From Escherichia phage WPEC1, in sequence record PV659873.1: DNA of 64,000 nucleotides. One strand, 5' to 3'. This document shows positions 28,638-31,496 of the stretch, piece by piece. The position numbers were made by a program, and so were the translations under genes. Under the pieces are notes generated by a model that saw only the letters and a list, made by a program, of their open reading frames with translations, had not been told where the DNA came from and searched no databases. The first letter of the stretch is position 1. Each line of letters starts with the position of its first letter.

Positions 28638-28697
28638 GCGGGAAACCACTTCCCGCCTTATGTGATAAACTTTACTACCTGGTTTGCCTGCTGTCAA
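28638..28697 (-). promoter_or_regulatory. promoter plus conserved hairpin (duplicate of 3111-3170)
   Basis: Near-identical to 3098-3175; TTGACA rc 28692-28697. Confidence 0.5.
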
Positions 28698-31496
28698 ATT
28701 ATTTAGAAAAATGACAAATAATATTCCGTTGAGCAGTGCAACATTGCTTCGCTTCTATAAAGCATGGATTGCCAACTATCCTGAAGATTTTAACTGGTTC
28801 TTACAAGAAGGTCTTGACTTAAGTCGCATCTCTCCTTTCTACGATGCTGATGAGTCTTATTCGCTACTCTGGTAGTTGATCATGGTGTTGAAGTTGAGCG
28901 TCACATTTGGAAAGATGAGCCTCCTTTCTTTGATTTGGCAATAAGACTCATCAGCATCGTAGAAAGGAGAGATGCGACTTAAGTCAAGACCTTCTTGTAA
29001 GAACCAGTTAAAATCTTTGTCAAATTCTTCTTCAATTCTAGGGTCTTCTCCTACAGCCTCTTCCCATTTATTAAAAGGTGCACCCTGTAACAGAAATTTT
29101 AACTGGTTCTTACAAGAAGGTCTTGACTTAAGTCGCATCTCTCCTTTCTACGATGCTGATGAGTCTTATTAAATTTTAACTGGTTCTTACAAGAAGGTCT
29201 TGACTTAAGTCGCATCTCTCCTTTCTACGATGCTGATGAGTCTTATTGCATATTGCCGCCGTTGCCGCTATTGCTATTATAGGTACCTACTATGACACCG
29301 CGCGACCTTCCTCCTTACATGAGATCACCGCCGTTGCATCAGTTGGCGTGCTGTTTTACGTTGGTAAACGCTATTTATCACCAATGATTAACAAGCTGAC
29401 ACAGATATTGCCGCCGTTGCCGCTATTGCTATTATAGGTACCTACTATGACACCGCGCGACCTTCCTCCTTACATGAAATCATCACCGCCGTTGCATCAG
29501 TTGGCGTGCTGTTTTACGTTGGTAAACGCTATTTATCACCAATGATTAACAAGCTGACACCGAAAAATAAAAAAGCCCCTAACCTTTCGGAGAGGGGTGT
29601 TAAAAATAACAAGGAGGAGGGGCAAAGCCCCAAGAGAGGAGAGGGATCGCCGCCGTTGCATCAGTTGGCGTGCTGTTTTACGTTGGTAAACGCTATTTAT
29701 CACCAATGATTAACAAGCTGACACCGTGTTACAGGGTGCACCTTTTAATAAATGGGAAGAGGCTGTAGGAGAAGACCCTAGAATTGAAGAAGAATTTGAC
29801 AGAAATTTTAACTGGTTCTTACAAGAAGGTCTTGACTTAAGTCGCATCTCTCCTTTCTACGATGCTGATGAGTCTTATTGTTACAGGGTGCACCTTTTAA
29901 TAAATGGGAAGAGGCTGTAGGAGAAGACCCTAGAATTGAAGAAGAATTTGACAGAGATTTTAACTGGTTCTTACAAGAAGGTCTTGACTTAAGTCGCATC
30001 TCTCCTTTCTACGATGCTGATGAGTCTTATTCAAAGAAAAGAACCGTATGTATTGCGATTGATTCATGTATGTCTGGAGTTGGGTATGCGGTAGTTTCTT
30101 GTTTCTTAGCTTAATGGGACGATTGGGTTAAAGTAGCTAAAGAGTACGGTGTTTCACCATATATAAGAAATGCAGAAGAGGAGAATGAAGAAGTCAGCTT
30201 GTTAATCATTGGTGATAAATAGCGTTTACCAACGTAAAACAGCACGCCAACTGATGCAACGGCGGTGATTTCATGTAAGGAGGAAGGTCGCGCGGTGTCA
30301 TAGTAGGTACCTATAATAGCAATAGCGGCAACGGCGGCAATATGCTTATCATTGTGCAAAATACCTGGAGGCATTTTTATGATAATTTTAGCAACAATTC
30401 TTATGATGTTGATAGCCATTGCTATGAAAAGAACCGTATGTATTGCGATTGATTCATGTATGTCTGGAGTTGGGTATGCGGTAGTTTCTTGTTTCTTAGC
30501 TTATCATTGTGCAAAATACCTGGAGGCATTTTTATGATAATTTTAGCAACAATTCTTATGATGTTGATAGCCATTATGAGTCATTTGAAAAGGGGTGGCC
30601 TTCCTTGCCGTTGTTCTAAATATTATCATTACACTCCTGAACAATGGGCCTACCGTAATAAGACTCATCAGCATCGTAGAAAGGAGAGATGCGACTTAAG
30701 TCAAGACCTTCTTGTAAGAACCAGTTAAAATTTTTGTCAAATTCTTCTTCAATTCTAGGGTCTTCTCCTACAGCCTCTTCCCATTTATTAAAAGGTGCAC
30801 CCTGTAACAATAAGACTCATCAGCATCGTAGAAAGGAGAGATGCGACTTAAGTCAAGACCTTCTTGTAAGAACCAGTTAAAATTTTCGTCAAATTCTTCT
30901 TCAATTCTAGGGTCTTCTCCTACAGCCTCTTCCCATTTATTAAAAGGTGCACCCTGTAACAGTCAGCTTGTTAATCATTGGTGATAAATAGCGTTTACCA
31001 ACGTAAAACAGCACGCCAACTGATGCAACGGCGGCGATTTCATGTAAGGAGGAAGGTCGCGCGGTGTCATAGTAGGTACCTATAATAGCAATAGCGGCAA
31101 CGGCGGCAATATCTACAAAATTGCGCATATTTTATCCTCCTCATATCTGATCTTATCACAAAATGATATACAATTGCAAGCATGAAAAATAAAAAAGCCC
31201 CTAACCTTTCGGAGAGGGGTGTTAAAAATAACAAGGAGGAGGGGCAAAGCCCCAAGAGAGGGATCATAAAAATGAAGCATTTGGCGACGGTTGCACAATG
31301 GCGGTAAAATCCTTAAAGGATGGAATCATCCGTCAAGCTAAGTCGTAGACGAGTCTACAAAGAGGCCGTTGGTTCAGTTATTGCTAACTTAGAAAGTAGT
31401 GTAGAATATGAACCATTTACTATAAAGGGTTGCCAGAAAACTTTCTCTTTTACTCATGGTTTTCTCCTTCTCTCACACCTCTTCTGGTTGCCCTTC
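28688..31496. repeat. module array A2: about 36 abutting 73-78 bp blocks
   Basis: Head-to-tail blocks in both orientations, no constant spacer; blocks recur across arrays and match 16678-16985, 3037-3110, 26939-27008 and others. Confidence 0.9.

Follow-up and report, generated by a model that had tools for sequence, protein, structure and literature searches.

The arrays of short abutting blocks that interrupt the 64,000-nt stretch of the Escherichia phage WPEC1 record (PV659873.1) analyzed here, hereafter the window, are almost certainly an artefact of assembly or finishing, in which the edges of a k=77 de Bruijn graph appear to have been strung together as one sequence. The arrays are not a real genomic feature and have no biological significance. 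We base this reading, which draws on sequence comparison, on the k=77 structure of the arrays, the identity of their pieces with graph unitigs, the scrambling of the contigs around them and the collinearity with a reference genome that returns once these contigs are re-threaded. The sequence-only reading that preceded this work had already suspected a k=77 de Bruijn assembly, and this suspicion turned out to explain the arrays in full.

By its sequence identity, the window can be assigned to Phapecoctavirus as a phAPEC8-like E. coli phage. In its unique parts it matches the phages WPEC2, WPEC4 and WPEC6 with 100% identity and Mt1B1_P17 (Phapecoctavirus, 151 kb), which served as our reference, with 99.9% identity. 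Matching the whole window against itself with 20-mers revealed repeat-dense zones at 4782-5867, 28628-31579, 41493-42284, 44947-45403, 54686-56687, 57519-59522 and 61748-63678, in agreement, to within one block, with the seven arrays located by the sequence-only reading. Short zones resembling block sources appeared at 3032-3185, 12145-12299, 16677-16988, 23677-23852 and 26935-27089. The lengths of self-BLAST HSPs grouped at 75-78, 152-154 and ~235 bp, corresponding to one, two and three units. Repeated 20-mers cover 19% of the window versus 0.8% of Mt1B1_P17, in which a 328-bp terminal repeat is the sole exact repeat of at least 40 bp. Because this closely related and properly assembled genome is almost free of repeats, the repeat density of the window lies far above chance. 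The same property of Mt1B1_P17 led us to reject genuine repeats of the phage lineage as a candidate.

The lengths of the repeats carry the signature of the assembly graph. Maximal exact matches within the window show a sharp peak at 77 nt (n=120), and the tail of 52, 22, 4 and 1 matches at 78, 79, 80 and 81 nt fits chance extension, for which ~60, 22, 7.5 and 2.5 would be expected from a base of 77 nt. The repeated 77-mers are isolated positions at the ends of pieces, one piece apart. The block size of 73-78 bp read from the sequence therefore needs correction: the sequence in common measures exactly 77 nt, and the physical pieces that carry it are 78-83 or 149-155 bp long.

We searched for a segmentation in which repeated 77-mers lie flush with piece ends, 78-mers are unique inside pieces and branching vertices occur only at piece ends. 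The window resolved into 102 pieces with 0 internal branching vertices, namely 12 large contigs (988-10,068 bp), one contig of 399 bp cut off by the window end, and 89 small pieces in a short (78-83 bp, n=41), an intermediate (89-133 bp, n=7) and a long class (149-155 bp, n=41). Together the small pieces make up 16% of the window (~10.3 kb) and form seven arrays and one lone 154-bp piece (Table 1). The shortest measure 78 bp, which is k+1 (n=9), and 13 measure 155 bp, which is 2k+1. A piece of 78-83 bp consists of one 77-mer plus 1-6 nt, and one of 149-155 bp of two 77-mers around a variable centre; the pieces of 89-133 bp (7/89) are attributed to variable positions spaced wider apart. Within pieces, only 2 of ~56,700 78-mers are duplicated, a pair of adjacent ones that we attribute to boundary ambiguity, and no two pieces are identical. 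Across the whole window 78-mers are not uniformly unique; because those that span junctions extend by chance, uniqueness was judged inside pieces and by the distribution of match lengths. Piece boundaries are accurate to within 1-3 nt where the partner edge falls outside the window, and at 4861-5170 two segmentations are equally consistent.

Table 1. Segmentation of the window into large contigs and arrays of small pieces. Reference intervals and variable sites are given in Mt1B1_P17 coordinates.
Position	Strand	Feature	Reference interval, variable sites and remarks
1..3108	+	Large contig	1-3689; ends at site 3691; identical to WPEC2 1-3108
3109..4860	+	Large contig	5039-6795; ends at site 6797
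4861..5790	.	Array: six ~155-bp single-SNP bubble pieces	From sites 150260, 123646 and 3691, and one without reference match
5791..12222	+	Large contig	18440-25432; starts at site 18438
12223..16753	-	Large contig	12241 down to 6800; ends at site 6797
16754..16907	+	Lone 154-bp piece	Wild-type (ATG) bridge of site 123646, misplaced between two unrelated contigs
16908..23753	+	Large contig	116800-123645; from site 116798 to site 123646
23754..28704	+	Two large contigs	Listed in the two following lines
23754-27011	+	Large contig	~12186-14969
27012-28704	+	Large contig	~3694-5116; starts at site 3691
28705..31502	.	Focal array: 26 abutting graph pieces, 78-83 and 149-152 bp	Sites 150260, 116798, 18438, 6797, 93622, 104685, 39106, 3691, 84187 and 94615; from segmentation and reference mapping
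31503..41570	-	Large contig	104682 down to 94616; between sites 104685 and 94615; carries tRNA cluster Met-Arg-Ser-Asn-Thr-Gly
41571..42206	.	Array: 5 pieces	Sites 150260, 116798 and 107507
42207..45024	+	Large contig	104686-107506; true neighbour is the start of contig 31503-41570
45025..45326	.	Array: 2 pieces	149 bp (site 93622) and 153 bp (site 150260)
45327..54757	+	Large contig	84189-93620; between sites 84187 and 93622
54758..56609	.	Array: 16 pieces	
56457-56609		Last piece of the preceding array	Bridges site 94615; duplicates most of tRNA-Gln
56610..57597	-	Contig	94614 down to 93627; genuine tRNA-Gln, tRNA-Pro, tRNA-Ile and pseudo-tRNA-Met
57598..59445	.	Array: 20 pieces, mostly 78-83 bp	
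59446..61825	-	Large contig	18434 down to 16055; between sites 18438 and 16053
61826..63601	.	Array: 12 pieces, mostly 155-bp single-SNP bubbles	Spurious reverse-strand tRNA-Gln inside
63602..64000	+	Start of a further large contig	80664 onward; cut by window end

Mapping the arrays to the reference revealed where the blocks come from. Every block is one of two 77-mers beside ~15 micro-variable sites, which lie in Mt1B1_P17 coordinates at 3691, 6797, 16053, 18438, 39106, 80662, 84187, 93622, 94615, 104685, 107507, 116798, 123646 and 150260, with one or two more in sequence that Mt1B1_P17 lacks. The ~30 distinct blocks counted previously are thus these ~15 sites with two flanks each. Pieces of ~150-155 bp cross a site contiguously and in a reference-like manner, and their copies differ only centrally, by 1-4 nt. 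Each site holds the wild type together with single-base variants at 1-3 nearby positions, or every combination of these. Two earlier impressions have to be given up, namely that the copies are identical, since they carry these differences of 1-4 nt at the block junction, and that the blocks were copied from elsewhere. No copying took place: the blocks are graph vertices common to overlapping assembly fragments. What had been taken for single-copy sources are the terminal 77-mers of large contigs, and the blocks that seemed to have no source in the window derive from parts of the 150-kb genome beyond it.

The identity of the pieces with graph unitigs was examined at site 116798, the centre of which reads GAC[A/G][A/G]A[A/G]ATT and at which all eight of eight combinations of the three A/G positions within 4 nt occur. 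For this site only, we simulated a compacted de Bruijn graph from eight haplotypes, with 77-mers as vertices and 78-mers as edges. The simulation predicts 20 unitigs (six of 78 bp, six of 79 bp and eight of 152 bp), and 20/20 are present verbatim in the window, where they tile the arrays without gaps or overlaps, in abutting runs such as 57833-57984, 57985-58063 and 58064-58141, or 58891-58969, 58970-59048 and 59049-59126. Clustering the small pieces by shared sequence, independently of the simulation, returned a cluster for this site with exactly 20 members. Twelve of the 20 are found in the array at 57598..59445, comprising 6/6 left-flank pieces, 5/6 right-flank pieces and one 152-bp double. 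Furthermore, 14 of the 101 junctions in the window are tandem duplications of a 77-mer, whereas about one or two would be expected by chance; these are graph-adjacent edges written with their overlap untrimmed, and the remaining junctions leap from one edge to an unrelated one.

The large contigs tell the same story of a graph cut at its branch points. They stop precisely at variable sites, and compared with Mt1B1_P17 the window falls into ~20 collinear segments that are scrambled in order and orientation. As written, the breakpoints split ORFs that are conserved in the reference, including the ATPase gp041, the minor head protein gp141, gp258, gp243 and gp263, and the interval from tRNA-Gly to tRNA-Gln, which is ~100 bp in WPEC2, WPEC4 and Mt1B1_P17, spans 15 kb in the window. 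We re-threaded four contigs and three bridging pieces through their terminal overlaps of 71-77 nt, in the order 45327-54758, bridge 45025-45173, 56611-57597 (reverse), bridge 56457-56610 (reverse), 31501-41570 (reverse), bridge 30426-30575 and 42207-45024; these coordinates are 1-2 nt off the final segmentation, and overlaps below 77 nt reflect boundary imprecision. The resulting 23,321 bp aligned to Mt1B1_P17 84189-107506 as a single HSP with 99.85% identity. Arrays of tRNA genes, considered as a candidate since the block size is close to the length of a tRNA, were rejected: ARAGORN placed tRNAs only in two normal clusters, apart from two spurious tRNA-Gln calls, both of which sit inside bridging pieces.

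These results bear directly on the possibility that the arrays are real DNA, in which ~77-bp fragments of the phage genome are taken up and joined head to tail by the phage itself or by a defence or recombination system, whether as a spacer archive without repeats or as concatemers of cDNA or recombination products. The superficial pattern of fixed-size, genome-derived blocks in both orientations, which recurs in three other records, is what such a process might leave. However, the block size equals the assembler k-mer exactly, and the pieces coincide with the unitigs that the allele combinations predict, each of which occurs a single time. The scrambled contigs, whose ends supply the blocks, break off within conserved and structural genes; a genome arranged in this way would be non-viable, and collinearity with the reference returns upon re-threading. 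A search of related phage genomes, a check that the sequence-only reading had proposed, found each block once and at its normal locus in more than 120 relatives. We regard real arrays as vanishingly improbable.

The three other records help to place the assembly artefact. WPEC2 (PV691511), WPEC4 (PV682947) and WPEC6 (PV763039) originate from hospital wastewater in Thailand (host EC3.18), are 155-159 kb long, and each exceeds the 151-kb reference by ~4-8 kb. All three match the focal array at many scattered places, and the array as written is present in no record of the phage collection that we searched. WPEC2 and WPEC4 are mis-joined at sites shared with the window (3691, 39106, 93622, 116798, 123646 and 150260). 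An array of WPEC4 (40773-45683) contains pieces of the window verbatim and abutting, in another order and with recurring mini-paths, and again shows the peak at 77; the variable sites and alleles of the window also recur in this record. At site 116798 of WPEC2, two contigs are joined directly (TTTGAC|ATTTT), with the loss of the four variable bases. These comparisons show WPEC2 and WPEC4 to be scrambled concatenations of contigs as well; WPEC6 is linked to them through its block matches. A literature search on the WPEC phages returned no paper on their sequencing or assembly.

The same records argue against a window that was deliberately built, for instance as a decoy for testing or by shuffling a record, instead of coming from a real assembly. 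Such a construction would account for a piece order that exactly matches no record of the phage collection, and for a sequence that follows WPEC2 exactly from 1 to 3108, after which its segments differ in order and orientation from those of both WPEC2 and WPEC4. Nevertheless, WPEC2, WPEC4 and WPEC6, which one laboratory deposited independently in GenBank, all contain similar arrays. WPEC2 and WPEC4 share matching variable sites and many identical pieces with the window, and the internal graph consistency is what assemblers yield. The window is most simply read as a fourth product of that pipeline. A synthetic origin is accordingly very improbable, if slightly less so than real arrays.

Under the assembly explanation, the real genome would be an ordinary phage of ~150 kb, collinear with other Phapecoctavirus genomes, for which the reads would contain, at ~15 places, two to eight alternatives, distinguished by 1-3 positions that lie within a few bases of one another. 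Each variable site would split the graph, so that long contigs end there and every allele combination becomes a small edge of its own, an isolated SNP yielding a 155-bp edge and clustered SNPs yielding edges of ~150 bp together with connectors of 78-83 bp. All edges would have been emitted once and complete, with their 77-nt overlaps untrimmed and with an order and orientation that only partly follow graph connectivity. Because edges emitted in this untrimmed and loosely ordered form would lie end to end, runs of small edges would mimic arrays of 77-bp blocks, and the contigs would be scrambled.

The pattern suggests an assembler of the SPAdes type and a later concatenation step, and very high depth presumably let low-frequency variants or systematic errors outlast graph cleaning. 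In SPAdes, the minimum edge length is k+1 (78), k=77 is the default largest k for 150-bp reads, and bulges above a fixed coverage are left unpopped. Recurring errors in phage assemblies at very high coverage have been reported to be assembled themselves, causing false de Bruijn branches and fragmentation (PMC5923482). Several simple rules for the order of the pieces were tried and rejected. Neither length nor lexicographic order fits; alphabetical order of NODE names would mean the largest contig first and descending lengths in each array, which the piece lengths contradict; and simple graph order is at odds with only 14/101 junctions being graph-adjacent.

The nature of the variable sites is a separate question. 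The seven A>C variants (T>G on the opposite strand) are all preceded by TT, a placement shared by only 8.1% of the A's genome-wide (p ~2e-8). This indicates a context-dependent process, for which systematic sequencing error is the simplest candidate. That all combinations are found independently within 4 nt is also easier to explain by per-base events than by mixed strains. No common motif emerged across the variable sites beyond this TT context of the A>C transversions. GATC is present at two of the sites, and Dam sites, GGC-triggered Illumina errors and base modification were considered as conceivable causes. Several of the sites fall on signals for translation initiation, among them the start codon of gp228, which occurs as ATG, ACG and ATA, and the ribosome-binding site of gp155. 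It is unlikely, though not negligibly so, that the ~15 sites reflect genuine hot spots at which several alleles recur in the phage population, and not errors of sequencing. Were they real, they would suggest site-directed hypermutation or strong parallel selection, for example for escape from host defence; the arrays would remain an artefact even then.

The practical value of these findings is moderate and lies in curation rather than biology. Public 'complete genomes' are implicated, at least WPEC2, WPEC4 and WPEC6, the last through its block matches, and probably also the record from which the window comes. Records of this kind contaminate protein databases, make pangenomes look larger than they are and give false signals of rearrangement or of new repeats. 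The annotation of the WPEC4 array lists 25 tiny "hypothetical protein" CDS, which stand for fictitious small proteins, and tRNA-Gln calls are duplicated in the window. An automatic screen could look for exact repeats that peak at the k of an assembler, for pieces measuring k+1 and 2k+1 and for the lack of any repeated (k+1)-mer.

Comparison with known systems supports the same conclusion. The sequence-only reading had found that the arrays resemble no tandem repeat, CRISPR array, IS element or MITE, and the structure tests came out against each of them. CRISPR arrays likewise place short genome-derived segments in series, but the segments of the window are self-derived, lie in both orientations and are one assembler k-mer long, and its arrays contain no constant unit between blocks that could be a direct repeat, the pieces abutting directly. 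The likeness to tandem or satellite repeats is limited to local two-copy periodicities: TRF on 3.2 kb around the focal array reported only four local two-copy matches, with periods of 77, 152 and 158 bp, and no unit that runs along the whole array, whereas the loci from which adjacent pieces derive can be separated by 100 kb or more in the real genome. No structure of an IS element or MITE was found in the focal array, whose only ORFs are chimeric and 60-102 aa long and whose pieces map to ordinary single-copy phage loci. In contrast, the edges of a k=77 graph of the SPAdes type (k+1 to 2k+1 nt) match the window in their 77-nt overlaps, their minimum of 78 nt and their 155-nt SNP pieces, and the window likewise uses each (k+1)-mer once and ends its contigs at branch points. 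It differs from usual assembler output, which comes as separate FASTA records, in being one fused 'complete genome' with overlaps untrimmed and no N gaps. Compared with ordinary Phapecoctavirus genomes (phAPEC8/Mt1B1_P17-like), the window holds no biological difference, and once the artefact is undone, its gene content and order agree with theirs at 92-100% identity.

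Both sibling records compared with the window (WPEC4, PV682947, 40773-45683 and 50000-99999; WPEC2, PV691511, 1-50000) carry the same artefact, in which assembly-graph pieces and scrambled large contigs are written end to end. In these public records, the contigs are scrambled and joined at the same sites as in the window. At the 116798 join (Mt1B1_P17 coordinates, a related Phapecoctavirus reference), WPEC2 lacks 4 nt, between TTTGAC and ATTTT. The WPEC4 stretch 40773-45683 is an array of the window's own pieces, annotated as 25 tiny hypothetical-protein CDS. WPEC6, compared here through block matches, has them at 16 places.

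A 77-mer is tandemly duplicated at 14 of the 101 piece junctions across the window; these junctions are graph-adjacent edges whose overlaps were left untrimmed. Mini-paths of graph-adjacent pieces are also kept in WPEC4, and because of both observations we conclude that piece order follows graph paths in part. Both additional tRNA-Gln calls are artefacts, lying within bridging pieces for site 94615; these pieces repeat a portion of the genuine gene.

The centres of the window's pieces define about 15 micro-variable sites, each with 2-8 allele combinations inside 1-7 nt. At site 116798, three A/G positions occur in all eight possible combinations. The start codon of gp228 is ATG, ACG or ATA depending on the allele at site 123646, and the gp155 ribosome-binding site and spacer contain site 150260. 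TT precedes every A>C change at the variable sites (7/7, p about 2e-8). The sites are probably systematic sequencing errors arising at extreme depth, with real hot spots a less probable reading.

Features located in the window and in Mt1B1_P17
Feature	Window	Mt1B1_P17	Strand	Caller
Tandem-duplication junctions (examples)	29170/29171, 55068/55069, 56609/56610, 57984/57985
Variable piece centres (examples)	29803-29806, 29955-29958, 5092-5094, 45098-45105
Variable sites		3691, 6797, 16053, 18438, 93622, 94615, 104685, 107507, 116798, 123646, 150260
Pieces unmatched in Mt1B1_P17	5636-5790 / 62291-62445, 30576-30657, 56073-56304, 61826-61980
Early-gene region	1-4860, 12223-16753, 23754-28704	1200-12500
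Extra tRNA-Gln(ttg)	56544-56616		+	ARAGORN
Extra tRNA-Gln(ttg)	62543-62610		-	ARAGORN
Genuine tRNA-Gln	56621-56696

Five small window pieces have no match in Mt1B1_P17. They probably border variable sites within a segment present in the window's lineage and missing from that reference. One of them, at 5636-5790, is found in WPEC2. ARAGORN called no tRNA-Tyr at window ~40749-40836, the equivalent of the tRNA-Tyr annotated between tRNA-Ser and tRNA-Asn in WPEC2 and WPEC4, whose Mt1B1_P17 homologue is a pseudo-tRNA (GTA) according to RefSeq.

The early-gene region is fast-evolving. Its identity between window and Mt1B1_P17 is only 92-96%, against 99-100% elsewhere; in Mt1B1_P17, it holds about 35 very small ORFs with intergenic gaps of ~75-95 bp. 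Within window 1-360, positions 1-328 match both ends of Mt1B1_P17 (a 328-bp terminal repeat), and the window, WPEC2 and Mt1B1_P17 therefore share one genome start position.
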